56,409 bases of DNA from a virus. Taxonomy: Duplodnaviria; Heunggongvirae; Uroviricota; Caudoviricetes. The stretch is from the IMG/VR virus record IMGVR_UViG_2617270940_000006. The stretch is one strand, 5' to 3'. Shown here in pieces: positions 1 through 37,357 of the stretch. Numbering within the stretch: the stretch's first letter is position 1; every line of letters starts with the position of its first letter. Made by a program: the position numbers and the translations under genes. The notes below the pieces were generated by a model. It was not told the DNA's origin. It worked only from the letters and a program-made list of their open reading frames with translations, and ran no database searches.

Positions 1-906
1 CTATATTTCCAGACACCTGTTATCACTTAACCCATTACTGGCCTGCTGCCGCAGATATTCCCGTGGCGAGCGATAACCCAGTGCACTATGCGGATGCCAT
101 TCGTTATAATGCTCGAACGCCTCTGCAAGGTTCTTTGCTGCCGTTAACCCGTCTGGTTTAGGCATGATACTGATGTAGTCACGCTTTATCGTTTTCACGA
201 AGCTCTCTGCTATGCCGTTACTCTCCGGACTCCGCACCGCCGTGTTCTTCGGTTCAAGCCCCAACATCCGGGCAAACTGCCGTGTTTCATTAGCCCGGTA
301 GCATGAACCATTATCCGTCAGCCACTCTACTGGAGACGCCGGAAGCTCGTTGCCGAAGCGGCGTTCCACCGCTCCCAGCATTACGTCCTGTACTGTTTCA
401 CTGTCGAAGCCGCCCGTAGTGACTGCCCAGTGCAGTGCCTCACGGTCACAGCAGTCCAGCGCGAACGTGACTCGCAGTTTTTCTCCGTTATCACAGCGGA
501 ACTCGAACCCGTCAGAGCACCATCGTTGATTGCTTTCTTTCACGGCCACTTTGCCAGTATGTGCCCGTTTCGATGGCGGTACAGCGGGTTTTCGCTCAAG
601 CAACAGCGCATTCTGGCGCATGATCCGGTAAACACGTTTGGCATTGATCGCAGGCATACCATCAAGTTCGGCCTGTCTGCGAAGCAGCGCCCATACCCGA
701 CGATAACCATACGTGGGCAGCTCTCCGATAACATGGTGTATACGGAGAAGCACATCCGTATCATCTGAGTGACGGCTGCGGCGACCATCTTTCCAGTCAT
801 CGGTTCGTCTGAGAATTACGTGCAACTGCGCACGCGACACCCGGAGACAACGGCTGACTAAGCTTACTCCCCATCCCCGGGCAATAAGGGCGCGTGCGCT
901 ATCCAC
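1..906 (-). CDS. insD: IS2 transposase OrfB (InsD)
   Basis: 301-aa ORF; transposase catalytic core with DDE-type residues; matches recalled IS2 InsD. Confidence 0.9.
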
Positions 907-1229
907 TTTTTTGCACGCCCGTATTCAACGGCTTCTTTAAGGAGTTCATTTTCCATCGTTTTTTTGCCGAGCAGGCGCTGGAGTTCTTTAATCTGCTTCA
1001 TGGCAGCAGCAAGTTCAGAGGCAGGAACGACCTGCTCTCCTGCGGCCACAGCAGTAAGACTTCCCTCCTGGTATTGCTTGCGCCAGAGAAATAACTGGCT
1101 GGCTGCCACACCGTGTTGCCGGGCAACAAGGGAGACCGTCATTCCCGGTTCAAAACTCTGCTGAACAATAGCGATCTTTTCCTGTGTAGTACGCCGTCTG
1201 CGTTTCTCCGGTCCTAAGACATCAATCAT
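864..1229 (-). CDS. insC: IS2 OrfA (InsC)
   Basis: ORF beginning [13 protein letters not shown], overlapping insD as in IS3-family frameshift arrangements; the ORF-track start at 1274 is an upstream extension. Confidence 0.8.
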
Positions 1230-1320
1230 CTGCTCTCCAATGACTAGTCTAAAAACTAGTATTAAGACTATCACTTATTTAAGTGATATTGGTTGTCTGG
1301 AGATTCAGGGGGCCAGTCTA

Positions 1321-2810: not shown

Positions 2811-3129
2811 GTGTACCCCCTGATGGCCGGTGATGTAGGAAGGCCATCATTGCTCTCTATTTAAACTGAGTTTTCGACTCAAAGGTTATTTAACTGGGCT
2901 ATAGCCCATTGCGTATGTGTCATCAAATTGTGTACGGCAATTTACCGTACACGTAATATAGAGATGATTGTCACTTTTTTCAACAGACAAATGATAACAA
3001 TTACTAGCAATAGGCAATAACAACCTACTAAATAACCTTTACACCGCAGCCGTAGGCATTTAGGCTATATCGCATATAAGAAAACAAGTTGTTTCATACG
3101 ACAATAATTCACGCAAAGGAAACTCACCA

Positions 3130-3795
3130 ATGACCAAGATCATTGTGGTTGGCGGCACAAAAGGCGGCCCAGGCAAATCTACCGTTGCCCAGCAAATTGC
3201 GGTATGTCTCAAAGTTAAAAAGAAAAAGAAGGTTCACGTCACCGATATCGATATCCAGCGCACCACGACCAGCTGGTGTGAAGACCGTCGCCAGAACGAA
3301 GATCTTGAACTGATCCCGTTCGCTTATGTGCAGGACGACATCGTCAAACATCTTAAATCGCTTCAGGGGCGAACTGATTATGTAGTGGTAGATGCTGGTG
3401 GCTTTGACTCCGAAATTCAGCGTCTGGCGATGCTTATGGCTGATGTAATCATCATCCCGCTGCGCCCTAAACGTCGTGATTTGAAATCTCTGCGTGATAT
3501 CGACCCGATTATCGACAACGTTCGCAATGTGAACGAGAAAGTTAAGATCCGCGCGGTAATAAACCAGTGTCCGTCATTGCCTTCCCAGGTATCACGTATT
3601 CTAGCCGCGAAGGAAATTGTCGAAACTTTCGGCATCGAGGCTGCGCCGGTCAATCTGTACAACCGTAACGTTTATGACGATGCGGAAGAGGCAGGTCGTT
3701 CTATCTTTGAAATGACTGGCGCTGAACGCGATAAGAAGGCAGAAGCCGAGTTCGAAGAGTTTGTAGATTACATCTTGAGTCTGGAGGAAGAATAA
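3130..3795 (+). CDS. parA: ParA-family partition ATPase (small type)
   Basis: Deviant Walker A (GGTKGGPGKST); 221 aa; followed by a small overlapping partner gene. Confidence 0.85.
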   Translation: MTKIIVVGGTKGGPGKSTVAQQIAVCLKVKKKKKVHVTDIDIQRTTTSWCEDRRQNEDLELIPFAYVQDDIVKHLKSLQGRTDYVVVDAGGFDSEIQRLAMLMADVIIIPLRPKRRDLKSLRDIDPIIDNVRNVNEKVKIRAVINQCPSLPSQVSRILAAKEIVETFGIEAAPVNLYNRNVYDDAEEAGRSIFEMTGAERDKKAEAEFEEFVDYILSLEEE

Positions 3796-7470: not shown

Positions 7471-8655
7471 ATGAGCCTTTATGGTATTCAAATACCGAGG
7501 CTTATCAAGATATTACCTGCAAAAAACAGGGGTAAGAACGTGAGCGACTTGAAAGAATTACTGACCGAGCTGGATTTTGAGCAATGGCTCGATATGGAAG
7601 GGATCATCTACCGTCATGGTGGAGTCAGTACTCGCGGACGAGAGGTCAACATTAAAGAGTGTCCGGTATGCGGCAGCTCAAACTGGAAGGTTTATTTCAA
7701 CCTGACCAGTGGTGTCGGCAAATGCTTTGCAGGTGATCATCCCGAAGAGATTCAGTTCAATAAGCTGGTCTTCCTAAAGCATTACAGCGGCAAATCCCGT
7801 CGCGATTTTGAAGAGTACGTCCAGAACGCGCTGATCTCACAAGGTTGGGCGCCGAAGAAGGAAGAGATCGTGCTGGCCAGCAAGGTTGAACTGGAAGGAC
7901 CGGTAGCTCTCCCGCGCCATTACGAACTCCCCATTGACGGTCGTCTTCCTGATTATCTGGTGGAGCGCCAGATTTCCCCGGAGCTGGCCAAATACTTTGA
8001 TCTGCGTTACTGCGTCGAAGGCAAGCACGCATACGTCGATCCGTACACAGACCAGGTCAAAGGACAGGTATTCGATATGCGAATACTGATACCGGTTTAC
8101 GATCTGGATGGCGTGATGAAGACCTTCCAGGGTCGTGACATTACCGGTGCAGCAGAACGCCGGTATCTGTTCCCCATGCAGCTGCCAGCATCGGGTAAAT
8201 TTCTCTACAACGGCCACAATGCAGTCGGCAAACAGACTGTAGTTGTCTGTGAGGGGGCGTTCGATGTTATGGGGGTTAAACGAGCTATTTTTGATGAAGA
8301 AACATTACGCGATTACGTGGAACCGATAGGAACGTTCGGGATGCATCTATCTGGTAACACCACTCAGGATGCAGAAGATCAGTTGGGCGCGTTCCTGACG
8401 CTCAAGGCGCGTGGATTACGTAATGTGATTATGATGTGGGATAGTGAAAAGCAAGCTATACGCAACACGATGGCCGCAGCCAGGCGACTGACCAGTATCG
8501 GTCTTAATGTCAAAGTAGCGTGTTTGGGCGAGGAAGGACTCGATCCCGGCGATGCGACACCGGGGCAGATTATCAAAGCCTACTATTGCGCAAAACCTTA
8601 TTCACGACAGCTTGAACTTTTAAGCAAGGTAAAAGGCATAGCTGCATTAGTTTGA
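7471..8655 (+). CDS. DnaG-like primase (zinc finger + TOPRIM)
   Basis: CPVCGSS...C zinc motif and a TOPRIM-like VVVCEGAFD segment; start chosen at the ATG with the conserved context, not the upstream track start. Confidence 0.8.
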   Translation: MSLYGIQIPRLIKILPAKNRGKNVSDLKELLTELDFEQWLDMEGIIYRHGGVSTRGREVNIKECPVCGSSNWKVYFNLTSGVGKCFAGDHPEEIQFNKLVFLKHYSGKSRRDFEEYVQNALISQGWAPKKEEIVLASKVELEGPVALPRHYELPIDGRLPDYLVERQISPELAKYFDLRYCVEGKHAYVDPYTDQVKGQVFDMRILIPVYDLDGVMKTFQGRDITGAAERRYLFPMQLPASGKFLYNGHNAVGKQTVVVCEGAFDVMGVKRAIFDEETLRDYVEPIGTFGMHLSGNTTQDAEDQLGAFLTLKARGLRNVIMMWDSEKQAIRNTMAAARRLTSIGLNVKVACLGEEGLDPGDATPGQIIKAYYCAKPYSRQLELLSKVKGIAALV

Positions 8656-8788
8656 ACCAGTATTATCAACGGCTCGGAAGTGTCTAAATTATCCGTGGCG
8701 ATTCATAACCTTGCGGCTGCTCACCCCATCAAGAAGCATCTTTAACGCGTCACGGGACAATTTGTTGTATTTGCGTACCATTAATTTA

Positions 8789-9166
8789 CTACGCCGTACC
8801 ATACAATCTACGTAACGTGGCAACGACAGTAGATACGGATACCTCTCCGGTCGCAGCCCCCACAGTAAGCTCTGCCAGTTCTGGTGAATCATATACCTGC
8901 ACACCGTTACGGCGCAGAAATAACAACGCACTGTTTAGCGCGGTACGCTTATTGGCATCATTGAATATATGCCCTCTCGCAGTAGCCACCAGGTAAGTTG
9001 CGGAGACTTCGAAAAGGTCGGTAATCTCTTCATATGCAACTCTGGCCTGGACTCTCCCGATAATAGCCTCAGCTCTTCCCGAATCTGACATGCCTGGCAG
9101 GCCGCCGTAGCGGCTTATATTCGCATCATGAATTGCAGTAAGCTCTTCCGGTGATATATGCCTCAT
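8789..9166 (-). CDS. doc: Doc toxin (Fic/Doc family)
   Basis: 125 aa with [12 protein letters not shown]; near-identical to my recollection of P1 Doc. Confidence 0.95.
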
Positions 9167-9387
9167 TATCGGTTAACCAGTTTCTTATTGGTGGTGTCCA
9201 GAGTGTCAAACAGGGATGCGAATTCAGCATCCAGCGCCGCTTTTTTGTAGGCTTCGAAAGTGGCCTTGCTGACAATTACAGCTGGCTCACGGCCTCTACG
9301 GGTGATTTCAACCTCTTCTCCGGCTTCAACATTGTTGAGCACTTCGGTAAGATTGCTGCGTGCGGTACGGAAGTTAATAGATTGCAT
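9166..9387 (-). CDS. phd: Phd antitoxin
   Basis: [10 protein letters not shown]... matches recalled P1 Phd; stop overlaps the doc start. Confidence 0.95.
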
Positions 9388-9571
9388 AAACACCTCGTGT
9401 ACTCAATATGTGTACGCAATTATAGAGCTTAATTGCCCACTACTCCATCATTTTATCCAGTGCGCCTTATACCTCCACTCTGAAGGACGGGGTTTTAGGG
9501 CGCTCTGGATAAAAACACACGTACTTTCTCTCCGAAAGTACGTGAAAAGTAGCGACTAACCACCATGCTCA

Positions 9572-10582
9572 TTAGTCGTAGGATACGGCAAATATCGCCT
9601 GGCCTTGAACTTCCCCAGGCTGTAAAGCTTCCTCTTTCACGCGAACGTATTTTGCGGTAATCGGGAAGATGTACTGTTCCTGAATAGCCGCCATTTTAGG
9701 TAATCTGTTCATCAGGGTATCGCCCAGCTTTAACGGTGTCGTTGCATTACCATTGTAAATCTGGAACCCTACACCCTTAGCACCATCGGACAATGTATTT
9801 TTCAATATTGTTCCACTATCATCCCACACACCACGCTCAACTTTAAAAGTCACTGGATTAGTCGTGACGTTATAGACACTATCGCAATTTAGGACCAGAT
9901 CTACAGAACCTGATTTTGAGTTATTGGCAGATAGCATCTCACTTATCGTTGTTTCTGGTATTCTTATTTCGTAAGTCGGTTGCGAGAAACGACAGGTTGT
10001 GGGTTTGTGTTTAACAGTAATGGTTAGTTTTTGTTCGTAAGCATCGCCTTTATTTAACAACCCCAATAAATTGCACAATATCCATGAAAAAATATTTGAA
10101 CTGCATTGATTATCAGATAAAAAGTTACCCGCTGGCTTTTTTAATTCGAATGAATCCCCCTCTACCGCTTCACCATGATCACTTCTATATGTAGTTGGTG
10201 GTATATATGAGGCCGTTAACTTCAGTTGTTTATTATTAATGGTATCAGCAACAGAATAGGTTTTAGGCGACAGAAGCGAACCACTCGTTTCTACAGGAAA
10301 TCCATCAGCCTCAAGCTTTAATTTAATAAAAATAGACTTATTGCTGGAGCCATCTTTCATTTCAACAATATAGTCATCTAACGTTGTTGCAAAATACATC
10401 TTATCCCCCCTCGAGTTACATTCATAAGATCCTTGCAGGTTGGGATTAAAACTTACTATTGTTGAATCCCTTGTTAAGTCCAGTGTAATTGGTTGAGTTG
10501 CTGTCCAAGTTCCCTTAGGGGTACATTTCGCCTGCCCAAAAAATGGAATAATCAACAAAAACAAAAACCAATATTTCTTCAT
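9572..10582 (-). CDS. Fimbrial minor subunit / tip adhesin candidate
   Basis: Signal peptide (MKKYWFLFLLIIPFFGQA); distal gene of the chaperone-usher operon; start set 11 bp after the usher stop. Confidence 0.55.
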   Translation of the reverse strand: MKKYWFLFLLIIPFFGQAKCTPKGTWTATQPITLDLTRDSTIVSFNPNLQGSYECNSRGDKMYFATTLDDYIVEMKDGSSNKSIFIKLKLEADGFPVETSGSLLSPKTYSVADTINNKQLKLTASYIPPTTYRSDHGEAVEGDSFELKKPAGNFLSDNQCSSNIFSWILCNLLGLLNKGDAYEQKLTITVKHKPTTCRFSQPTYEIRIPETTISEMLSANNSKSGSVDLVLNCDSVYNVTTNPVTFKVERGVWDDSGTILKNTLSDGAKGVGFQIYNGNATTPLKLGDTLMNRLPKMAAIQEQYIFPITAKYVRVKEEALQPGEVQGQAIFAVSYD

Positions 10583-10592
10583 AAAAAATCCT

Positions 10593-13085
10593 TTAACGAC
10601 AAATATAAACTTTATTCTCTTCGATAACTTTATCAAAGGTAATAGTACAGAATTGTTCCTGCTGTTTATTAACCGAGACGCGAATCGATGCGGGAACATC
10701 ATCAGTGCGAATAAATATCCGACTTCCCTGTCCTACCAAGCCCACATTCTTACCGCTTTCATCTTCAACTTCATAACCGAACGATAATGGAGAACCATCC
10801 GGGCGCTGAGCAAGGAAATACCAGGGTTTACGTTTGTCAGTATCAAACTGCGTCATCACAACGGCCCCACGATAAGGAGCGGTGCTTTTACGGTTGCCCA
10901 GTAGTGCCACATCGCTTTGACTGTCAGAAGTATCCAGCATCAACGTGTTTTTACGATACGGCGTCAGGCTGTCATAAATAGCGTAACCTCGGCTATCCGT
11001 GCTCAGGTAACGATACCCCTGTACCGCAGCCCCATCCAGCCCCGGAGCATGGACGATGGTAAATGTATCTGAAAGTCTGGGAGCCAGTGCTATCCCGTCT
11101 GACCACGCGACTAAACCACCTTGAATATTACCACTTATCTGTTGATATTTTTTCGACTGGCTATAGCTGCCACCAATGGTAGCCACTGGCGCACGCCAAA
11201 TCAGATTTCCACCTGCTGTTGCTTCGCTGTCCTGTTGTTGATGGCTAAAGTTAGCCCCGTAGCTGAACTGATCACGGTTCCCAGCTACACCACTGAGGCT
11301 GGTAGTATTTGACTGGTAGCCGTCTTTATCAAATGTGGTCGAGTTAGAGATAAATAAATCTCGTCGTTTTTCGGTGATATTATCACGCCACGAGAAGGGG
11401 ATTGAGAAAAATAAGTTAATGCGTCTGTCTTCGCTGTTATCCTCATCGTATGTCTGGCTAACCGACAAGGTATAACTTAGACGTTCCCATGAGTTCGTAT
11501 AGCTTAGTTGGTAATTTTTCCCTGTCCCGCTACGTTCCCAGTAATCTCGCCATTGACCGCTGATCGCCAGATACCCCCAATTTTCCGGTAATGACTGGTT
11601 GATATTTAAAGAAAAGCTATTCTTGCGACCAAAATCATACTGGTAGTAGTTGGCAATGTCATAGCCTGAGTTGTCTTCTCGATTGTATCTATTTTTGTTA
11701 TTTGCCCATACATGATCGTTAAAAGTACGATAACCCCGAGAGGAATAACGCCAGGCCGCCAGAGAAAATTGTGTTCCGCTCTGAGAGAGATATTTATTCC
11801 AGGCAATCTGATAACTTTGACCGTTAAACACATCACCGTTGTCTTGCTTGCTGTATGAATGGGTAAAATCAACCGATATAGCACCAATCGGTGTATTCCA
11901 TCCTGTTCCAAGAACAAACGATGAGTAATTATCAGATAACAGCGTGCCGCCATAACCTGTCAGCAAATTGTTGAAACCATGCTTATAGCTTCCCTGGATA
12001 AAATCAGATTGATTGCTGGCTCCTTCAATATGACTACGTCCGGCTGAAAATTCATATTTAGAAACGCCAGGTTGCAACATATTTGGCACCGATGAATAAG
12101 GCACCCGATAGTACGACGTTGAACCATCAGCTTCTTTGACGATAACTTCCAAATCTGCCCCACCATTAGAAAGTTGCAAATCATCAATGGCGAATGGGCC
12201 TGGCGGTACTTCTTTCTGGTAAACCACAAAACCATTTTGTTCTATGGTGACGAGTGCGTTACTCTGGGCAACGCCGCGTACCACAGGAGTAAAATTCTGT
12301 TTAGAGTTCGGTAACATCTGCATATCGCGCCAAAGGCGCACGCCGCGAAAACGCACGGAGTCAAAAACATCAGAACCAGTATACATTTCACCTGCGCGAA
12401 ACGTGCCGAGAATTTGTGGAATTCCACGTTCCAGATATAGCGTGTTACTCTTCCATTTACCGCTGTTTTCGTCGCTTTTCGTATAATTGGCATTTGAATG
12501 CAGCTGCCAGCCCAGGAGATTTAACCCACTGTTCAGATTTAGATAGCTACTTTTATCATCTCCGCCGTTTTTATAATCACTGTAATACTGACTGGCATAA
12601 TAAGATGTATATAATGCGTTAATCCCGCGATCCCATGCTTCAGGCGGAACATAGCCATGTTCATATTCCAGAACATAGGCTTGGGGCACGCTTAATTTTA
12701 GGTTAAAATGCCCAATATCATAGTCGACGCTGCCTCCCTGGACAGCATCCCGAAGTGGTACACATTCTACGCCTTTATCGATACTAATTCCTTCAGTGAG
12801 GATCCCAATTTGCTTTAATTGCTCCATGGATAAACATGTTGCATTAGGGTCATCTTTAATATCAATATCATAGTGGCCACGCCATTGATTATTCAGATAA
12901 ACATCCATAGCGTAGATACCCGGCATCGGCTTATCACTATCAATATGGTAGTTAGAAATTTTCTCCCCATTTAAACCACCAATCATAAAATTGGTATTAA
13001 ACGTTTCACCCTTAGCCCATGTATGCGAAGTCGCTAATACTGACAGAATAGCCAGTGTAATAGAATTAAACTTTGACATAACCAA
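10593..13085 (-). CDS. Fimbrial outer-membrane usher
   Basis: 830 aa with signal peptide; size and position between chaperone and adhesin are typical of usher proteins. Confidence 0.9.
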   Translation of the reverse strand: MVMSKFNSITLAILSVLATSHTWAKGETFNTNFMIGGLNGEKISNYHIDSDKPMPGIYAMDVYLNNQWRGHYDIDIKDDPNATCLSMEQLKQIGILTEGISIDKGVECVPLRDAVQGGSVDYDIGHFNLKLSVPQAYVLEYEHGYVPPEAWDRGINALYTSYYASQYYSDYKNGGDDKSSYLNLNSGLNLLGWQLHSNANYTKSDENSGKWKSNTLYLERGIPQILGTFRAGEMYTGSDVFDSVRFRGVRLWRDMQMLPNSKQNFTPVVRGVAQSNALVTIEQNGFVVYQKEVPPGPFAIDDLQLSNGGADLEVIVKEADGSTSYYRVPYSSVPNMLQPGVSKYEFSAGRSHIEGASNQSDFIQGSYKHGFNNLLTGYGGTLLSDNYSSFVLGTGWNTPIGAISVDFTHSYSKQDNGDVFNGQSYQIAWNKYLSQSGTQFSLAAWRYSSRGYRTFNDHVWANNKNRYNREDNSGYDIANYYQYDFGRKNSFSLNINQSLPENWGYLAISGQWRDYWERSGTGKNYQLSYTNSWERLSYTLSVSQTYDEDNSEDRRINLFFSIPFSWRDNITEKRRDLFISNSTTFDKDGYQSNTTSLSGVAGNRDQFSYGANFSHQQQDSEATAGGNLIWRAPVATIGGSYSQSKKYQQISGNIQGGLVAWSDGIALAPRLSDTFTIVHAPGLDGAAVQGYRYLSTDSRGYAIYDSLTPYRKNTLMLDTSDSQSDVALLGNRKSTAPYRGAVVMTQFDTDKRKPWYFLAQRPDGSPLSFGYEVEDESGKNVGLVGQGSRIFIRTDDVPASIRVSVNKQQEQFCTITFDKVIEENKVYICR

Positions 13086-13096
13086 TCCCTGATAAT

Positions 13097-13777
13097 CTAT
13101 TTGGCAGTTTTTATTTTTTCACTCAAATAGTTTCCATGATCATCAATCAGAGTAACATTGTAATAGTTAACAACGGATGTCGTTTTGACAGTCTGATCTG
13201 ACCAGGGTGCCAGCAGTAGTGTCTCCTTATTAATTTTCGCATTCCCGGTTAATTCAGGAATGGTTATCCAGTTCGCTGAATTATTTTTTATGTTAATGCC
13301 TCTATCAACGGGTCTGATATTAATCCGGGAAAAACTCTCTTTATCGACTCTTGTTATACCCTTTGGGCGATAAATAAATTTGATACGATTTTGCATCGCG
13401 AATTTAATCAGATTCTTGCCTTCGTATTTCTCACTATTAGGTGGAATATCCAGTACATTAAGGAAGAACAGACTTTCGCGATCTTTAGGTAGAGTGTTCG
13501 CCAGTTGTTTAATTTTCAGTTGCTGTCCTTCACCCTTACTAACATGAACTACCGGTGGAGTCAGCACAAAAGGTACACTAATCTTTTCCGGAGGAAGGCT
13601 GGCATCGCCATCATCAATCCACGACTGAACAAGAGCACTACGCTCACCTTCATTCATTAACTGAACTGCAATCTCTTTTTTCTGTTCCGGATAAATAACG
13701 CGAGTGCCGTAAATATAGACACCGCCCCACGCAGATGGGACCGTTACGGTTAGTAAGAAGGCTATTAATTTTTTCAT
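13097..13777 (-). CDS. Fimbrial periplasmic chaperone (PapD-like)
   Basis: Signal peptide plus characteristic chaperone length and operon position; start placed at MKKLIAFLL. Confidence 0.85.
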   Translation of the reverse strand: MKKLIAFLLTVTVPSAWGGVYIYGTRVIYPEQKKEIAVQLMNEGERSALVQSWIDDGDASLPPEKISVPFVLTPPVVHVSKGEGQQLKIKQLANTLPKDRESLFFLNVLDIPPNSEKYEGKNLIKFAMQNRIKFIYRPKGITRVDKESFSRINIRPVDRGINIKNNSANWITIPELTGNAKINKETLLLAPWSDQTVKTTSVVNYYNVTLIDDHGNYLSEKIKTAK

Positions 13778-13832
13778 GATAACAATCCTTGCGATTGAAA
13801 ATCGGCGACCGAAGCCGCCGATAAACATCATG

Positions 13833-14381
13833 TTAATCTGTTACAACGGTCATTGTTATCGCAGAACTAACTTCGCCAGTACCCACATCATCAGCTGCTT
13901 TTGCGTATTGCGCCGTAAAATGCAACTCATATTCACCATTAGTAGCTGGTGGTAACTTAATAGGACTATTACCAGAAATCCGGTTGCTAGAATCAGTACC
14001 TTTCCCCAAAAAAACAGCGAAACCGACACCGCTAGCATCACCAGTATTGCGAGTAACATTTGAACCCGTTCCTTCAAATTGGGTGCTGGAGAAGGTAATT
14101 CTTGGTTCTTTTTCTCCGGGACATTTAACTTTTAGTGGTAAAGATGTTGTATTTGAATAAGTGGTAACGGGGGAGCCAACTTCTACATTTTCAAATTGAT
14201 CACGACCAATTTCGCTCATCGAAATTGTTGTATTCTCACTACCGCTCAGGAACTGACATGTAGTCTCTGTGACTTTACCGTTAATAGTTAACTGACCCTC
14301 TGTACTCCCTTCTGCTGCAAATGATCCTGCGCTCATAAAAAGAGATGCTAATACAGTAGCCGCAATAACTGAACGTTTCAT
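13833..14381 (-). CDS. Major fimbrial subunit
   Basis: 182 aa, signal peptide, Cys pair, first gene of the operon. Confidence 0.8.
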   Translation of the reverse strand: MKRSVIAATVLASLFMSAGSFAAEGSTEGQLTINGKVTETTCQFLSGSENTTISMSEIGRDQFENVEVGSPVTTYSNTTSLPLKVKCPGEKEPRITFSSTQFEGTGSNVTRNTGDASGVGFAVFLGKGTDSSNRISGNSPIKLPPATNGEYELHFTAQYAKAADDVGTGEVSSAITMTVVTD

Positions 14382-14511
14382 AGACTAATCCTTAACTAAT
14401 TTGCTTTAACTAAAAAAGAGATCGCAATCTCTTGCTAATAAATTACTAAAAATAAAAATGATAGAGCAATATAAAAGAATATTTTTTATTTTAATCAAAA
14501 ACATTTCCATG

Positions 14512-15537
14512 TGGATTGGCCCCTATATTTCCAGACACTTTTTATCGCTTAACCCATTACTGGTTCGCCGCCGCAGATATTCCCGTGGAGAACGATATCC
14601 CAGTGCACTGTGCGGATGCCATTCGTTGTAATGTTCGAAGGCCTCCGCAAGGTTCTTTGCCGCTGTTAACCCGTCAGGTTTTGGCATGATACTGATGTAG
14701 TCGCGCTTCATCGTTTTCACGAAGCTCTCCGCCATTCCGTTGCTTTCTGGACTACGTACCGCCGTATGTTTTGGCTCCAGTCCTATCATTCTGGCGAACT
14801 GACGCGTCTGATGAGAACGGTAGGCTGAACCGTTGTCTGTCAGCCACTCAACGGGGGATGTCGGCAGCCTGTTACCGAAGCGACGCTCTACTGCACCCAG
14901 CATGACGTCCTGCACGGTTTCACTGTCATATCCACCGGTACTTGCTGCCCAGTGAAGTGCCTCGCGCTCGCAACAGTCCAGCGCGAACGTGATCCGCAGT
15001 TTTTCACCGTTATCACAGCTGAACCCGAAGCCGTCGGAGCACCACCGCTGGTTACTTTCTCCAACGGCCACTTTCCCTCTATGCGCCCGCTTCGAGGGCG
15101 GTATTGCCGGTTTACGCTCAAGCAGCAGCGCATTCTGACGCATGATGCGGTATACGCGTTTGGCATTGATCACCGCCATGTCGTCAGTTTCTGATTGTCT
15201 GCGCAGCAGTACCCATACACGACGATAACCATAGGTGGGCAGATCGTCGATAACGGTATGGATACGAGCCAGCGCTTCAGTATCATCAGGCTTGCGCTTG
15301 CACCGACGATCCTGCCAGCCCTTCGACCGACGGGCCATGGCATGCAGTTGCGCACGTGAGACCCGGAGGCAACGACTGACAAGGCTTATTCACCATCCTC
15401 CGGCAACAAGGGCACGTGCGCTATCCACTTTTTTTGTCGGCCATATTCAACGGCTTCTTTCAGCAGCTCGTTTTCCATGGTTTTTTTGCCCAGCAGGCGC
15501 TGTAACCAACTGTCTGGAGATTCATGGGGCTAGTCTA
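14512..15537 (-). mobile_element. IS2-like element with internal deletion of the OrfA region
   Basis: Ends TGGATTGGCCCCTATATTTCC and GTCTGGAGATTCATGGGGCTAGTCTA resemble IS2 ends. About 1026 bp versus about 1.3 kb for IS2. Flanked by a 5-bp direct repeat, CCATG, at 14507-14511 and 15538-15542. Confidence 0.85.
14523..15338 (-). CDS. IS2-group transposase OrfB (InsD-like, diverged)
   Basis: 271 aa, collinear with the IS2 InsD at 1-906 but clearly diverged; upstream OrfA is largely deleted. Confidence 0.85.
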
Positions 15538-15608
15538 CCATGTTTATGGAAACATAACATTAAAATTATTTCGTAGTTTATTTTTTAGTTTAAATTGTCA
15601 AATTCATC

Positions 15609-15640
15609 GGTAATGCTACCAACTTATTGATTTAGTGTAT
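15609..15640 (+). mobile_element. IS1 terminal inverted-repeat remnant
   Basis: GGTAATGCTACCAACTTATTGATTTAGTGTAT resembles the recalled IS1 end (GGTGATGCTGCCAACTTACTGATTTAGTGTATG) and abuts the IS3-family end. Confidence 0.55.
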
Positions 15641-16058
15641 TGAATCGCCACAGGTTTAATAGACACCTCAGAGTCATTTAAGATGACTTAAAGAGAGGTG
15701 CCCATGAGCGGTAAGCGTTATCCCGAAGAGTTTAAAATTGAAGCAGTCAAACAGGTTGTTGATCGCGGTTATTCTGTTGCCAGCGTTGCAACACGTCTCG
15801 ATATCACCACCCACAGCCTTTACTCCTGGATAAAGAAGTACGGTCCGGATTCTTCCACTAATAAAGAACAGTCAGATGCTCAGCGTCTCCAGAAAGAGCT
15901 GAAGCGGGTTACCGACGAACGGGACATATTAAAAAAAGCGCGGCGTACTTCGCAAAGCTGTCCGACTGAGGTACGCCTTTATCCGTGACAACACCCATTG
16001 CTGGCCTGTCCGACTGCTTTGTCGGGTGCTGGATGTGCATCCGAGTGGTTTTTACGCC
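15641..16058 (+). mobile_element. IS3-family element, left-end fragment
   Basis: Terminal repeat TGAATCGCCACAGGTTTAATAGACACC, OrfA, an A6G slippery site near 15930 and about 30 codons of OrfB in the -1 frame, then backbone sequence. Confidence 0.75.
15698..15988 (+). CDS. IS3-family transposase OrfA
   Basis: HTH-containing OrfA (YPEEFKIEAVKQV...LKKA) ending at a frameshift window. Confidence 0.8.
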   Translation: MPMSGKRYPEEFKIEAVKQVVDRGYSVASVATRLDITTHSLYSWIKKYGPDSSTNKEQSDAQRLQKELKRVTDERDILKKARRTSQSCPTEVRLYP

Positions 16059-16156
16059 TGGCTTCTTCGTATAGCAGACTATTGCGCTCGATATAATAAG
16101 TAGATACTTACTTATTTTTCTGAAAGAATACTTTCATCTGTTAGTCAGGAGTTGCT

Positions 16157-16969
16157 ATGAAAGAAGAATTTCAGAAGTTAGTCTGCGACATCATCGACAA
16201 ATCCGGCGTAGAAATTGATACAGAAGAGCGCCAGAAGATTATCGACGAGGCGATCCAAACTGCGCTGGAGCATATCGCCACGTCCGTGAGCGCCGCACCT
16301 CTTTCGGAAGGCTCGAAATACATGCAGGTCTGGGTTCGTTTTGGAGAGTCCCCGGAGTTGCCAGGTGTTAAGCAGAAACGCGCGGCACTTGTGGCGTTCT
16401 CTCGCGAGATGAAAGACGCAACGGTCGAAGTGAGTACCGGTGCATGGTACGACGGTCGCATTGTCTACACTAATCAGACTGTCTACACCAATCAGACTGT
16501 GTGCGATGAAGGTGAACGGTTTGAGGATATTGTCGACGCAACTCTTCGCACGCTCAAAGTCAGAGCTGGTGTGGCGGATGACCCGTCCATCGCGGCGTTC
16601 CTGAGTATTGTCGAACAGTCTGAAGTTACCGAGCGCGTAACAGATCTGACAACTCCACCTGGTTTGCTGGAATTGGTGGTCAGTGGCGATATCAAAAAAG
16701 CCGTTGAGCGCATTCGTGAGGTGGAATACGGCATTATCTGCGATATGTGCCGCAGCGACTTAGACCTGGTGCGCATCATTGTCGACGCGGGTCAGGCATG
16801 TGACGGAGTACTCGCCAGTTTTGCAGGGCAAGTGGCTCGTCTGGCCAACGAATTACCCATGATTAAACAAGAAGCCAAATCCTACGCCGTCCACCATGCC
16901 AACGATTTACTGGACCCATACCGGTTCGAAGCTGCTCAGGACAAAATGACTGGCTGGGCGACCTGGTAA
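16157..16969 (+). CDS. Hypothetical protein
   Basis: 270-aa ORF preceded by a class A motif and followed by a GC hairpin plus T-run at 16988-17008; contains an 18-bp tandem duplication. Confidence 0.5.
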   Translation: MKEEFQKLVCDIIDKSGVEIDTEERQKIIDEAIQTALEHIATSVSAAPLSEGSKYMQVWVRFGESPELPGVKQKRAALVAFSREMKDATVEVSTGAWYDGRIVYTNQTVYTNQTVCDEGERFEDIVDATLRTLKVRAGVADDPSIAAFLSIVEQSEVTERVTDLTTPPGLLELVVSGDIKKAVERIREVEYGIICDMCRSDLDLVRIIVDAGQACDGVLASFAGQVARLANELPMIKQEAKSYAVHHANDLLDPYRFEAAQDKMTGWATW

Positions 16970-20452: not shown

Positions 20453-20524
20453 GATGGTGTAGCTCAGTGGTAGAGCGGTTGACTGTTAATCAACTGGTCG
20501 GTGGTTCGAGTCCACCCACCATCG
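20453..20524 (+). tRNA. tRNA-Asn (anticodon GTT)
   Basis: Hand-folded cloverleaf: 7-bp acceptor stem (GATGGTG/CACCATC), D-stem GCTC/GAGC, anticodon stem GTTGA/TCAAC with loop CTGTTAA, T-arm GGTGG-TTCGAGT-CCACC. Confidence 0.85.
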
Positions 20525-20681
20525 CCGACATAGCGCTGAACGGTTTGGATTCGCCACCACCGTCCGAACGAAAGACTCCGCAAATGTCGCCAGACCGTTC
20601 AGCGCTGTGATAGACACGGCAGACGTTTTTTTAACCATTGCTTCTAAGCATCGTAGCAACACTTTTTTCAGCGCAAAATCC

Positions 20682-34454: not shown

Positions 34455-36797
34455 ATGGCAAAAGGCAAATCCGCACTGGCACTGGCGCTGAAAAAGAAAA
34501 TCGGCAGCAATGACGAGATTCAGAAGGTCTCCCACTGGATTGACTCCGGTTTCCCTCCACTGAACAAAGCCATTTCCGGACGTTACGACGGTGGTTTTCC
34601 GTGTGGGCGTATCGTTGAAGTCTTCGGGCCACCAAGCGCGGGGAAATGTGTTACCGCAGACACCATGCTGCTGACGGAGCGTGGAATGGTAACAGTGAAA
34701 GAACTGTTTGAGATTGAGGGGCACAAAGCAACATGCACTACTCGCGATGTAGAGCATAACGTTGGACTCATCAATGAAAATGGCGTGATAGAGAAGACCT
34801 CACACCTGACATGGAACAACCGTCGCAAATTCAAGCGCATTAAGCTGGCATCAGGGGGTTACATCGAGGCTACGTTCCGTCACCCAATTCGTGTGGTTGA
34901 CGACTTAGGCAATATCGTCTGGCGGCATGCTGAAAAAATCAGTGTAGGCGACACGATTCCTTCAATGGTTGGCACACATCAATTCGGCGATCAGCACTTG
35001 GATGCCAATATCGCAAAACTGATGGGCTATTTAATTGCTGACGGATACGTGGCCTCTGAAAATTCTGTGCATTTTTCTAACACAGATCCATTCATCAAGG
35101 ATGAGTACTACCGCCTCATTTCGCTGGTATCAGACAAGATGCCAGTTACGAGAAAACATAACGGCTCGGAAGACCATGTGCTGTTTAGCAAAGAGGTGCG
35201 TTCGCTGCTTTTTAAAGAATATGGTCTGGAGTATGAGAAAGCTGCTGGCAAGCAGGTTCCGTTGAGTGTGCGTCGCGCCAATAGCGAGGCTCAAATTGCA
35301 TTCCTTCGCGGCTACTTTGAGCTGGAATGCCACGTCAATGATGGTCGCTGCATTGAGGTTGTGAGCGCGAGTGGGCTGCTGCTACAGCAAATTCGCCTCA
35401 TGCTCCTGAATCTGGGGATTGCGTCAACTATCTCTGAAAAACACGTCGCAGGTTATAAAAACATATATTACCGGCTGTCATTCAGTGGCTCTAACTACGA
35501 CCTTTTCCTGTCAACGATTGGGTTCGAGTCTCCGGCTCGTTTAGCAGTGGCAACCAAACGGGACATTAGTTTTGACCGCACTTATTTAGGCTACGTTCCG
35601 CACATCAGCGGCTTAGTGAAATCACTCTACGAGTCACTCACCAAGACCTCTCGTAAAGACTACGTTCTGGTAGATCACGTTATTGGCCGCGGCGATCGTG
35701 TCGGAATAGACAAACTGCGAGAAATCTATGTCTCCTTCATTGGCAGAAAGAATCGTTTTAACGAGCATCTGTTTGCACAACTGGCAGCGGTAATTGACTC
35801 TAACTTGTTCTACGACGAAGTCGTGGCTATTGAGGAAGGTGAAGCACCAACGTTCGACGTAGCGATGCCGGAAACACACTCTTTCTGGTCTAACGGGATT
35901 ATCAGCCACAACACATTCCTCGCGACGGCTGCGATGGTGTCAGCACAAAAACAGGATGGTCTGGCCGTATTCCTTGACCACGAAAACAGTTTCGACGTTG
36001 GTCTGGCGGTAGCGAACGGACTGAACGCCGACGAAGACGACGGTCAGTGGGTCTACAAACAGCCGGATACCTTCGAAGACTCCGTAGAGCTGATCGGCAC
36101 AATCCTCAAGCTGGTGCGCGACGAAGAGCTTATTCCGGAAACAGCCCCTATCTGCATCGTAGCCGACTCTCTGGCGTCGATGGTTCCAAACTCGAAGGCT
36201 GAGAAGTTCGACAAGATGGCAGAAGGCACTGCGAAGGACAAAGATCAGCTGAACATGAACGACAACACGGCGCTGGCGCGCGCGACAAGTGCGAACTTCC
36301 CTACTCTGGCGCTTTGGGCGCGTAAGTACAACGCGTGCATCATCTTCTTGAACCAGGTGCGTACCAAAATTGGTGTGATGTTTGGCGATCCGACTACGTC
36401 TCCGGGTGGCGACTCTCCGAAGTTCTACGCGTCGGTGCGCATCCGTCTGGGTGCATCCGTCATGAAGGATGGCAAAGAGAAGATCGGACAGGACGTTGGC
36501 GCCGAGTGCATTAAAAACAAAGTCGCGCCTCCGTTTGGCAAATGCTCATGGAAATTCTACTTCGACCCGACTCGCGGGCTGGACGTCGTCGAGTCTCTGG
36601 TTGAATACATGCTGGAGGAAGGATACCTGCCCAAGAGCGCCAGCGGGCGTGTGGAAATTGGCGAGAAGAAATACACCAAATCGCAGATCGTCGAGATGTA
36701 CCGCGAGAAGCCACTCCCGGAAATCATCGCAGCACTCCAGGCGATAGACGAACGGCGAGCGAAAGAGTCGTCACCAGCAGAGACAGAAGAAGCGTAA
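34455..36797 (+). CDS. RecA/UvsX-like recombinase interrupted by an intein
   Basis: The Walker A motif is split: GPPSAGK then Cys at codon 65, and it resumes as TFLATAAMV after ...SHN at codon 486. Removing codons 65-486 leaves a 358-aa RecA-size protein with a contiguous GPPSAGKT. Confidence 0.85.
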   Translation: MAKGKSALALALKKKIGSNDEIQKVSHWIDSGFPPLNKAISGRYDGGFPCGRIVEVFGPPSAGKCVTADTMLLTERGMVTVKELFEIEGHKATCTTRDVEHNVGLINENGVIEKTSHLTWNNRRKFKRIKLASGGYIEATFRHPIRVVDDLGNIVWRHAEKISVGDTIPSMVGTHQFGDQHLDANIAKLMGYLIADGYVASENSVHFSNTDPFIKDEYYRLISLVSDKMPVTRKHNGSEDHVLFSKEVRSLLFKEYGLEYEKAAGKQVPLSVRRANSEAQIAFLRGYFELECHVNDGRCIEVVSASGLLLQQIRLMLLNLGIASTISEKHVAGYKNIYYRLSFSGSNYDLFLSTIGFESPARLAVATKRDISFDRTYLGYVPHISGLVKSLYESLTKTSRKDYVLVDHVIGRGDRVGIDKLREIYVSFIGRKNRFNEHLFAQLAAVIDSNLFYDEVVAIEEGEAPTFDVAMPETHSFWSNGIISHNTFLATAAMVSAQKQDGLAVFLDHENSFDVGLAVANGLNADEDDGQWVYKQPDTFEDSVELIGTILKLVRDEELIPETAPICIVADSLASMVPNSKAEKFDKMAEGTAKDKDQLNMNDNTALARATSANFPTLALWARKYNACIIFLNQVRTKIGVMFGDPTTSPGGDSPKFYASVRIRLGASVMKDGKEKIGQDVGAECIKNKVAPPFGKCSWKFYFDPTRGLDVVESLVEYMLEEGYLPKSASGRVEIGEKKYTKSQIVEMYREKPLPEIIAALQAIDERRAKESSPAETEEA
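34647..35912 (+). other. Intein (422 aa) with LAGLIDADG homing-endonuclease domain
   Basis: Begins with Cys, ends with His-Asn, and is followed by Thr. Two LAGLIDADG-like blocks (LMGYLIADGYV, LRGYFELECHV). Confidence 0.8.
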
Positions 36798-36887: not shown

Positions 36888-37088
36888 ATGATTAAGGGTT
36901 ATCTCATGGCTGTTTCAGCAGTGGTATCAGTCTGCTTTATTTACGGTTTACTGGTTCCATCGCTTATATCAGCTAAAAGCGATCTGGCCTTCTTTATCGG
37001 ACTTGCCATCGCTTTAATCTTCCCGGTTGCCTTGTTAAAAGCTGGCCGCAGGTATATCAACTCACTCAATAAAACTAAGGAGAAGTAA
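36888..37088 (+). CDS. Small membrane protein
   Basis: 66 aa with two hydrophobic helices; conserved AAAGGAAACACATG start context. Confidence 0.4.
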   Translation: MIKGYLMAVSAVVSVCFIYGLLVPSLISAKSDLAFFIGLAIALIFPVALLKAGRRYINSLNKTKEK

Positions 37089-37091
37089 GTA

Positions 37092-37283
37092 ATGAAGAAA
37101 GGTTTACTGGCGGTGGCTTTGGCTGCTATTTGCACAATGGGTCTGACCGGCTGCGATCGCGTGGAACCGGGATACGTTGGCATTAAGGTAAACAAATTGG
37201 GTGAAGACAAAGGTATCGGTGAAGTTGTCGGCGTTGGCCGTCAGTGGACTGGTCTGAATACCGAGCTGTACACCTCTCTTTAA
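37092..37283 (+). pseudogene. Lipoprotein gene truncated at an IS remnant
   Basis: Lipobox LTGC; the sequence after it resembles the start of an SPFH/band-7 domain (EPGYVGIKV). The last codons and stop are supplied by IS-derived sequence. Confidence 0.4.
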
Positions 37284-37357
37284 GTCATCTTAAATGACTC
37301 TGAGGTGTCTGTTAAACCTGTGGCGATTCAGTCTATTAAACCTGTAGCGATTCACTT
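37262..37357 (-). mobile_element. IS3-family left-end remnant (inverted), with an extra 25-bp terminal-repeat copy
   Basis: The reverse complement of 37262-37331 matches 15641-15699; 37332-37357 repeats the terminal 25 bp. Confidence 0.7.

Follow-up and report, generated by a model that had tools for sequence, protein, structure and literature searches.

We analysed a stretch of DNA of 56,409 nucleotides (nt) (hereafter, the window; IMG/VR record IMGVR_UViG_2617270940_000006), which is draft contig JNPB01000087.1 of the Escherichia coli assembly GCA_000703445.1. The subject of the analysis is the chaperone–usher fimbrial operon that the window carries on its minus strand (14381-9572), together with the insertion sequence (IS) related to IS2 that lies directly upstream. 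Judged by gene content and order, the replicon is an SSU5/pHCM2-like phage-plasmid of E. coli.

Genes and family placement of the operon

Four complete minus-strand open reading frames (ORFs) in the ORF list of the window constitute an intact chaperone–usher operon, in the order major pilin, chaperone, usher and two-domain tip adhesin, and all four products align over their full length with homologues. The initial annotation had described a four-gene chaperone–usher fimbrial operon at this place, which the intact ORFs and the Pfam and NCBIfam matches bear out. Every gene of the operon is already annotated in RefSeq.

The major pilin subunit (14381..13833, minus strand; 182 amino acids (aa)) has a signal peptide, and its ATG is preceded at 7 nt by AGGA. 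It was recognised by the NCBIfam equivalog ‘fimbrial protein YehD’ (197 bits, cutoff 136) and is annotated as yehD in all sister records; no Fimbrial match was obtained for it in Pfam at E 1e-3, and a PDB search returned a single marginal match (E 0.0023) to an oddly named chain, which was not used. The periplasmic chaperone (13777..13097, minus strand; 226 aa) matches PapD_N (PF00345, E 4.5e-40) and the NCBIfam equivalog PRK15218 (388 bits, cutoff 372). The outer-membrane usher (13079..10593, minus strand; 828 aa) contains PapC_N, Usher (E 9.8e-184) and PapC_C domains and scored 1456 bits with NCBIfam PRK15217 (cutoff 933).

In the product of the fourth gene (10582..9572, minus strand; 336 aa), the Pfam Fimbrial domain matches the C-terminal half only. 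A single-sequence AlphaFold model of this protein was useless (predicted local distance difference test (pLDDT) 35), and a model built on an alignment of 28 sequences was used instead (pLDDT 82, predicted template modelling score 0.70). As Foldseek ranked the full-length two-domain adhesins FimH, FocH, CsuE and LpfD first, the modelled protein is a two-domain tip adhesin, with a predicted Yeh/Yhl-type receptor-binding domain at the N-terminus and a pilin domain at the C-terminus. The adhesin profile gave no match among PDB sequences, the receptor-binding domain being without detectable sequence similarity to solved structures. All adhesin homologues that were detected belong to E. coli, E. marmotae, Citrobacter, Pseudenterobacter or Salmonella (salamae, diarizonae and further S. 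enterica records). A terminator-like hairpin with a T run (9544..9518, minus strand) is located 28 base pairs (bp) past the adhesin stop, within a segment common to all operon types. The pilus would be built by donor-strand exchange and would present the Yeh/Yhl-type receptor-binding domain.

Family models, sequence identity and a shared upstream block point to membership of the operon in the gamma4 Yeh/Yhl/Stc group. The best family model for the usher is the YehB-type PRK15217, its identity to K-12 YehB is 62% at the aa level, and the operon is preceded by a conserved yehD-type upstream block; the identity to K-12 Yeh is 55% for the chaperone, 34% for the pilin and, over the pilin domain only, 28% for the adhesin. 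The minimal four-gene architecture is that of gamma4 Yeh and Yhl pili (PMC12778044, PMC7098969), and the same order is seen in K-12 Yeh (yehDCBA, or ‘yehABCD’ in the usage for uropathogenic E. coli), in Yhl (‘Yeh-like’) and in Salmonella Stc.

On sequence comparison, the operon is a third lineage in the Yeh/Yhl group, distinct from both chromosomal Yeh and Yhl. In a usher search of 5319 E. coli genomes, among the matches listed, those at the yehB locus were 67–68% identical at the nucleotide level and the other usher matches of at least 80% were copies of this operon. In O157 strains, which carry Yhl, the best usher match reached only 67.5–67.7% nucleotide identity; Yhl is almost confined to phylogroup E (PMC12778044). 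The genomic context of the operon differs from that of the Yeh and Yhl loci, and it was not found to be orthologous with Yeh or Yhl proper. Whereas Yeh is a fixed chromosomal locus, the window-type operon is mobile, and all copies fetched from E. coli, whether carried by phage-plasmids or by islands at tRNA-Phe or tRNA-Ser, have IS sequences at their borders or within them. The nearest chromosomal relatives are those of Escherichia sp. E1V33 and E. whittamii, members of cryptic Escherichia clades (usher 88–90% identical at the aa level), followed by Salmonella diarizonae and Citrobacter (usher 77–80%).

The guanine-plus-cytosine (GC) content of the operon is 42.0% versus 48.3% in the rest of the window. 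No other 4.8-kb window lies below 43.2%, and with a mean of 48.0 and a standard deviation of 2.6, the operon is about 2.3 standard deviations below the mean. The operon had been noted by eye as more AT-rich than the backbone, and the computed gap, modest as it is, is real. A recent foreign origin was considered as an explanation of the low GC content and rejected, since the whole Yeh family has the same composition, including the K-12 chromosomal operon (yehDCBA, 42.5%).

Composition of the cargo and its phage-plasmid backbone

The operon is part of a 6.9-kb cargo block (8706-15640), in which a pdcA'-doc-phd cassette is fused to it. The cassette comprises a 5' fragment of pdcA (8706..8788, minus strand), a phage P1 gene located next to doc and recorded as ‘PdcA protein, incomplete’ in chromosomal sister loci; the doc toxin gene (8789..9166, minus strand; Pfam Fic/DOC; about 91% nucleotide identity to P1) of a P1-type addiction module; and the phd antitoxin gene (9166..9387, minus strand; Pfam PhdYeFM_antitox), also annotated in RefSeq in the identical plasmid locus. 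Positions 8708-9424 are about 91% identical to pdcA-doc-phd of P1/P7, and by this similarity the cassette is phage-P1-derived. Between the promoter region of phd and the terminator of the fimbrial operon lies an inverted repeat with 26-nt arms (9451-9514; 81% complementary), and a 53-bp stretch around it matches unannotated DNA of Klebsiella, Proteus and E. albertii at 85–89%; this may be a small mobile element or a repeat element where P1 and fimbrial sequences join.

Both ends of the cargo match one and the same IS of the IS3 family, here called IS-X, so that the block is bounded exactly by two truncated copies of it. On the left, a right-end remnant of IS-X with an IS3-family inverted repeat (8656..8705, plus strand) is present, of which 8661-8705 has 100% identity with the corresponding end of an almost complete IS-X in plasmid pVTB432v-2 (L041, 3056-3100). 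On the right, the IS-X left end with a fragment of orfA (15641..16062, plus strand; about 422 bp; Pfam HTH_Tnp_1) matches the same full copy. The right-end terminus lies at 8705 and the left-end terminus at 15641, the two face inwards and both are truncated on their outer sides; they account for the longest inverted repeat in the region (38 nt, 8668-8705/15641-15678). A 33-bp terminal-repeat remnant of IS1 (15608..15640) adjoins the right copy on its inner side and is 91–93% identical to IS1 ends in three other loci (L002, L006 and L007). The cargo appears to be a relic of a composite structure bounded by IS-X. Homology of the backbone with relatives ends at 8665 (L004) and resumes at about 16053-16063; the segment 8656-8665 (ACCAGTATTA) is also backbone sequence, a microhomology of 10–11 bp at the deletion joint.

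The operon had been placed between phd-doc and an IS cluster, and this description holds: phd-doc (8789-9393) follows directly downstream and the cluster additionally contains the IS1 remnant and the IS-X fragment, while the IS-X remnant at 8656-8705, on the far side of the cargo, had been missed. Its designation as cargo is equally well founded. The backbone order helicase–primase–slot–hypothetical protein–ligase is common to plasmids of E. coli, Salmonella (106.7 kb, the size of pHCM2), Enterobacter, Citrobacter and Yersinia pestis, and relatives carry other genes between the primase gene and the one that precedes the ligase gene (one for a 350-aa hypothetical protein, or one for a TPR protein plus a small ORF), which makes this a variable slot. 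The operon is present in only 23 of 451 PLSDB plasmids with the ligase-region backbone, 219 of which are from Escherichia. A tRNA search found none in the cargo. PHROG matches elsewhere in the window include phage DNA polymerase, helicase, SbcC and cobT-like genes.

A comparable cargo is the caf1 F1-capsule chaperone–usher operon on plasmid pMT1 of Y. pestis, the species whose plasmids share the ligase-region backbone of the window; it is likewise adhesive-surface cargo but, unlike the window operon, belongs to a different clade with an FGL-type chaperone and has its own regulator. Plasmid pMT1 is itself an SSU5-supergroup replicon (10.1101/2025.09.12.675607). PapC/PapD pilus-assembly genes have been noted in the shell genome of the SSU5 supergroup in a single line and without anatomical detail (Pfeifer et al. 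2021, PMC7969092). These, too, are chaperone–usher cargo on an SSU5/pHCM2-type replicon, for which the operon type, IS boundaries, phd-doc fusion and island copies are defined here.

Copies on plasmids and chromosomes

The window-type (type-1) segment 9400-16100, including the IS, is found at 97.6–99.8% identity in 23 PLSDB plasmids and 26 complete E. coli genomes. The 23 carrier plasmids are mostly of 106–115 kb, of IncFIB or rep_cluster_488 type and non-mobilizable, and originate from humans, poultry, pigs, cattle, dogs, cats, frogs, sediment and wastewater. This layout recurs in nine draft contigs of phage-plasmids, the contig of the window included, and in four loci of IMG/VR. The IS-bearing architecture is thus fixed in every phage-plasmid copy found. 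With the reconstructed empty site as a query in PLSDB, 23 of 23 matches were split by the IS; no IS-free type-1 operon was detected in 5426 complete E. coli genomes, in IMG/VR or in the assembly collection, and the exact empty-site pattern gave 0 matches in metagenome contigs. An operon present in all relatives at the same position without IS was therefore not what we found.

The cargo from 8706 to the IS junction is, in addition, 93–97% identical to genomic islands at tRNA-Phe with a tyrosine integrase in about 60 E. coli chromosomes, and the type-1 chromosomal copies that were fetched are located in such tRNA-Phe islands. Fetched island copies with a full-length IS contain a genuine, intact IS2, the end of which is 4 bp closer to the operon (−126); in LD27-1, the island copy examined in this respect, this IS2 lacks a target duplication. 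A single insertion event common to plasmids and islands was ruled out, as the two elements are only about 80% identical, are inserted 4 bp apart and have a target duplication in the plasmid only. The islands extend 26 bp further into pdcA, whereas the plasmid has an additional 65 bp of DNA from upstream of the fimbrial genes (15543-15607, absent from the chromosomal island copies). As each version holds a piece that the other lacks, both descend from a common unsampled ancestor, and a derivation of the islands from the phage-plasmid copy, or the reverse, was ruled out by the same differences. By their sequences, island and plasmid versions share this inferred ancestor and still exchange DNA by homologous recombination. 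Plasmid pYPE3-114k (L036, NZ_CP041451.1) has an island-type junction with about 120 bp of genuine IS2 followed by the window-type IS, and is direct evidence of recombination between islands and phage-plasmids.

Two further copies differ upstream of the operon. In strain PM4, the junction places an IS1 about 93 bp upstream, and in pP59A-2 (L035, CP044300.1) a 109-bp insert at −57, a miniature IS5-family element, starts with an IS5-type end (GGAAGGTGCGAATAAG) and is flanked by duplicated CTAA. A chromosomal copy in a 4.7-Mb contig (L048, GCA_016820435.1) has the window-type pilin and the same dead IS, and adjoins a full IS-X that is interrupted by another IS and lies in opposite orientation relative to the cargo.

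A second operon type (type 2) is 81–85% identical to the window operon, with homology beginning at window position 9509. It was found on P1-like phage-plasmids (with tail-fibre assembly genes on one side and the holin gene on the other), on another SSU5-like phage-plasmid (at a different site, next to repA) and on a chromosome, the copies from these contexts being 99.3–99.5% identical to one another; about 315 bp of native upstream DNA are kept, and IS1 copies or end remnants are located at or near the boundaries. The occurrence of type 2 in several contexts shows that phage-plasmids have acquired Yeh-like operons repeatedly. Type 2 is 91% identical to its nearest chromosomal relative, the locus of Escherichia sp. 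E1V33 (L012, 4735-12306), in which the operon is set between cas6f and a type I-F CRISPR array (60-bp period, 11798-12306), with 3.4 tandem 182-bp repeats containing tRNA-Ser 3' fragments (10593-11204); from this setting, the E1V33 operon is also an insertion.

These distributions bear on the means by which the operon travels. The initial annotation had it moving with a phage-like vehicle, a plausible view that is incomplete in one respect: IS transposition and recombination move the operon as well. One could go further and regard IS transposition, island integration and homologous recombination as the actual vehicles, with the phage-plasmid being incidental and perhaps non-infectious. When 13500-14511, the 5' part of the operon together with its proximal upstream DNA, was searched in complete E. 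coli genomes, chromosomal places outnumbered plasmid ones by 63 to 39 (both operon types), and no deposited phage genome with the operon was found. The island/plasmid recombinant and the near-identity of type 2 across P1-like and SSU5-like replicons and the chromosome, with IS1 at or near its boundaries, point in the same direction, as do several carrier plasmids that are cointegrates of 133–324 kb, beyond the usual size of about 110 kb. An incidental role of the phage-plasmid is nevertheless somewhat unlikely, as the architecture is identical on plasmids of about 106–115 kb from varied hosts and sources, for which spread of the replicon is the simplest explanation, and IMG/VR includes two full-length sister plasmids among its viral genomes.

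The IS2-like element, the upstream region and expression

With the first base of its right inverted repeat at 14512, the IS lies exactly 130 bp from the start codon of the major pilin gene (ATG at 14381), as initially reported; the element is a deletion derivative. It occupies 14512..15537 (minus strand), has both inverted repeats (TGGATTGGCCCCTATATTTCCAGACA... and ...TCTGGAGATTCATGGGGCTAGTCTA, which align with the ends of IS2) and sits between two perfect direct copies of CCATG (14507-14511 and 15538-15542), which at 5 bp have the length of IS2 target duplications. Its transcription is in the direction of the operon. It measures 1026 bp versus 1331 bp for IS2, about 305 bp with orfA, the frameshift region and the start of orfB having been lost. 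The remaining orfB lacks its first ~31 codons and matches positions 32–301 of 301 of the NCBIfam model ‘IS2 transposase TnpB’ at 536 bits, below the cutoff of 597; RefSeq annotates the element as an IS3-family transposase pseudogene. Since orfA and the frameshift region are deleted, the element cannot move on its own. It shares with IS2 the type of inverted repeats, the 5-bp duplication and orfB; its nucleotide identity to two genuine IS2 copies is 79–80% (980–1024 aligned bases), compared with a level of about 95% for isoforms, and it is therefore a separate element and not an IS2 isoform. A genuine IS2 without its first 11 bp, about 80% identical to the dead element, is present at window positions 1-1320 and might supply transposase in trans. 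The other end of the contig (55966-56409) is inside an IS1; with one end in IS2 and the other in IS1, the assembly evidently broke at repeats.

On the operon side of the IS, the retained proximal upstream region (14382..14511, minus strand) has 21.5% GC. Beyond the IS, AT-rich DNA continues across the target duplication as a distal upstream remnant (15543..15607, minus strand), parted from the operon by the IS; together with the IS1 remnant (15543-15640) it has 22% GC. When the IS is removed in silico, the AT-rich DNA on either side (about 22% GC) becomes a continuous upstream region of 195 bp, delimited by the IS1 remnant. The order of events follows from this: IS1 came first and truncated the upstream region at −195, and the IS2-like element subsequently transposed to −130 with its 5-bp duplication and later lost the orfA region.

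The reconstructed upstream region was aligned with nine IS-free homologues and K-12 yehD. A block (TTTAAATCAATAAAACAA..GTTTACATTGCGG) located about 75–115 bp before the ATG is conserved family-wide, in K-12 yeh and all nine IS-free homologues, and is, by this conservation, the likely core promoter. All IS-free homologues have an unchanged TACATT in the block, with TTTAAA 18 bp upstream of it; the window has TATATT (14473..14468), nearer to the −10 consensus. The diverged counterpart in the window (TTGATTAAAATAAAAAATATTCTTTTATATTGCTC) is contained entirely in the retained 130 bp, and the IS junction coincides with the distal edge of the block. The IS had been said to cut the upstream regulatory region. 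Its insertion into upstream DNA is apparent from the CCATG duplication and the resumption of AT-rich DNA at 15543-15607, but the counterpart of the core block was spared, proximal to the IS, as the comparison with IS-free homologues including K-12 yehD makes clear. An Rfam search of 8600-16200 gave no match at E <= 0.1.

The best overall explanation, to which we assign a probability of about 0.6, is that of an intact, mobile operon of the Yeh/Yhl group that bears the scars of several IS, would be transcribed from its native promoter and would have altered silencing. Transcripts would be initiated from the core promoter native to the operon, within the 130 bp that were retained. As the IS has replaced all DNA distal to about −45 of this promoter, it would alter regulation, most plausibly by weakening H-NS-type silencing from AT-rich upstream DNA; it would neither abolish expression nor supply a promoter of its own. 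K-12 yehDCBA is cryptic under laboratory conditions, repressed by H-NS and activated by SlyA (PMC5797941), and the AT-rich upstream target of the IS is probably bound by H-NS. The most economical reading of the junction is accordingly worded as an effect on silencing: the IS would spare the core promoter and replace distal AT-rich DNA rather than make a promoter.

Several observations weigh against this explanation. The conserved block is far more diverged in the window than in any other member of the family, which could indicate that native regulation was lost and not kept, and a promoter consensus scan of the IS-free E1V33 homologue gave no site of at least 9/12 in the block. Within the IS-bearing lineage, usher and chaperone differ by 0–2 synonymous and 4–9 non-synonymous substitutions, an excess that fits relaxed constraint, although the counts are too small and an upward bias is inherent in comparisons this recent. 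In the chromosomal copy L048, the only broken type-1 copy seen, both the usher (769 aa) and the adhesin (278 aa) are truncated. Furthermore, the window covers only the replication and DNA-metabolism half of the replicon.

Some of these points would equally suit a silent passenger, that is, an operon that is not expressed, with neutral IS scars, kept through its linkage to phd-doc and the success of the phage-plasmid lineage. Yeh-family operons are cryptic in the laboratory (PMC5797941), the upstream block is degenerate in the window lineage, substitutions in usher and chaperone within it are mostly non-synonymous, decayed copies exist (L048, and a type-2 copy in ETEC1703 with a frameshifted chaperone gene) and the addiction module is physically fused to the operon in every type-1 copy. 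We consider this unlikely, however, in view of the integrity and the variability of the genes. The window has all four unbroken, as do all annotated type-1 copies retrieved from RefSeq/PLSDB, on plasmids and in islands alike, L048 being the sole exception among the copies seen, and the exact pilin sequence recurs in 244 blocks of the assembly collection. Between operon types, the ratio of non-synonymous to synonymous substitution rates (dN/dS) is 0.09–0.11 for usher and chaperone, which are under strong purifying selection at this distance; within the lineage, the 0–2 synonymous changes are too few to tell relaxed from purifying selection. The variable parts are the major pilin (16 non-synonymous versus 1 synonymous change, and an in-frame 27-nt indel) and the receptor-binding region of the adhesin, for which some islands have an allele only 67% identical while their usher is ~99% identical. 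Such variability is usual for exposed, selected surface proteins and argues weakly for expression in nature.

The initial annotation had also proposed that the IS could silence the operon or create a hybrid promoter. The latter would consist of a −35 element from the IS right end and a −10 element in the flank and would give constitutive, H-NS-independent transcription, as for IS2-ampC and IS1-afa; the IS right end does face the operon, the circle-junction promoter of IS3-family elements takes its −35 from the right end, published examples of hybrid promoters exist (PMC12095673, PMC8764528), IS2-type elements have been inserted in two lineages at nearly the same site in the same orientation, and a junction-spanning site, TCCACA-16 nt-TAAAAT, exists on the operon strand (14515..14488), but this part of the proposal has become improbable, because the site scores only 9/12, promoter-like sites are not enriched (12 found versus 14.2 expected in shuffled sequence), the canonical IS2 −35 (TGGAAA, 16 bp from the end), read by eye, faces ATGGAA/CATGGA and not a −10, TAAAAT is not kept in the island copies (GAAATC; the best site there, TTGAAA-16-TATATT, is wholly native) and the 150 bp at the right end of IS2 were inactive as a promoter when assayed with a reporter (PMC12095673). 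The promoter consensus scans identified no site conserved across homologues either, nor any enrichment over shuffles.

The explanation by a retained native promoter with altered silencing has precedents in IS activation of H-NS-silenced operons such as bgl. In E. coli ST131, the regulatory region of the afa/dr fimbrial operon is an IS hotspot, where insertions change expression and H-NS dependence (PMC8764528). The window-type operon resembles it in the several kinds of IS found upstream: the IS2-like element at −130, IS2 at −126, IS1 at about −93 (PM4), the IS5-type end at −57 (pP59A-2) and the IS1 remnant at −195. It differs in that transcription, H-NS/IHF dependence and adhesion were measured for afa/dr, whereas the present data are sequences and the insertion is fixed, not polymorphic. 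One may speculate, at rather long odds, that the region just upstream of the conserved block is a recurrent, selected IS target, insertions into which strip H-NS-silencing DNA and switch on a cryptic adhesin, and that the de-silenced operon on a phage-plasmid would confer a new gut-adhesion phenotype on lysogens, a case of lysogenic conversion through a pilus, with phd-doc enforcing its retention.

The arrangement as such is an ordinary and already annotated kind of mobile, IS-bounded cargo, and IS upstream of fimbrial operons are a known theme. The additions made here are a third lineage in the Yeh/Yhl group, the exact anatomy of the mosaic, its common origin with the tRNA-Phe islands and the clustering of independent IS insertions just distal to the conserved promoter block. 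YehD binds dietary pectin and aids gut colonisation, and colonic mucosa is bound by YhlD (PMC12778044). In the event of expression, a phage-plasmid of E. coli from people, livestock, pets and wastewater would carry a gut adhesin related to YehD/YhlD, and colonisation traits would be added to resistance genes, a known kind of phage-plasmid cargo. The locus also offers a natural series (IS-free, IS2-like at −130, IS2 at −126, IS1 closer and IS5-type at −57) on the rewiring of H-NS-silenced fimbrial promoters by IS, although its interest is modest unless expression and IS-dependent de-silencing are demonstrated.

A few features of the backbone deserve mention. Genes for tRNA-Lys (ttt) and tRNA-Asn (gtt) were identified at 3118-3198 and 20453-20526, respectively. 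In the backbone ORF adjoining the cargo (16157-16969), six codons are perfectly duplicated in tandem (VYTNQT VYTNQT), and homologues of this ORF in other plasmids vary in length. The 780-aa protein encoded at 34455-36797 combines a UvsX-like recombinase match with extra sequence, and the annotation of its homologue in pYLPD4a as a LAGLIDADG homing endonuclease suggests that it contains an intein. Finally, a 60-bp copy (98%) of the IS-X left end is present in inverted orientation at 37271-37330, near window position 36956, where pYLPD4a loses backbone homology and carries its own type-2 fimbrial operon; this region looks like a second IS-marked cargo slot.

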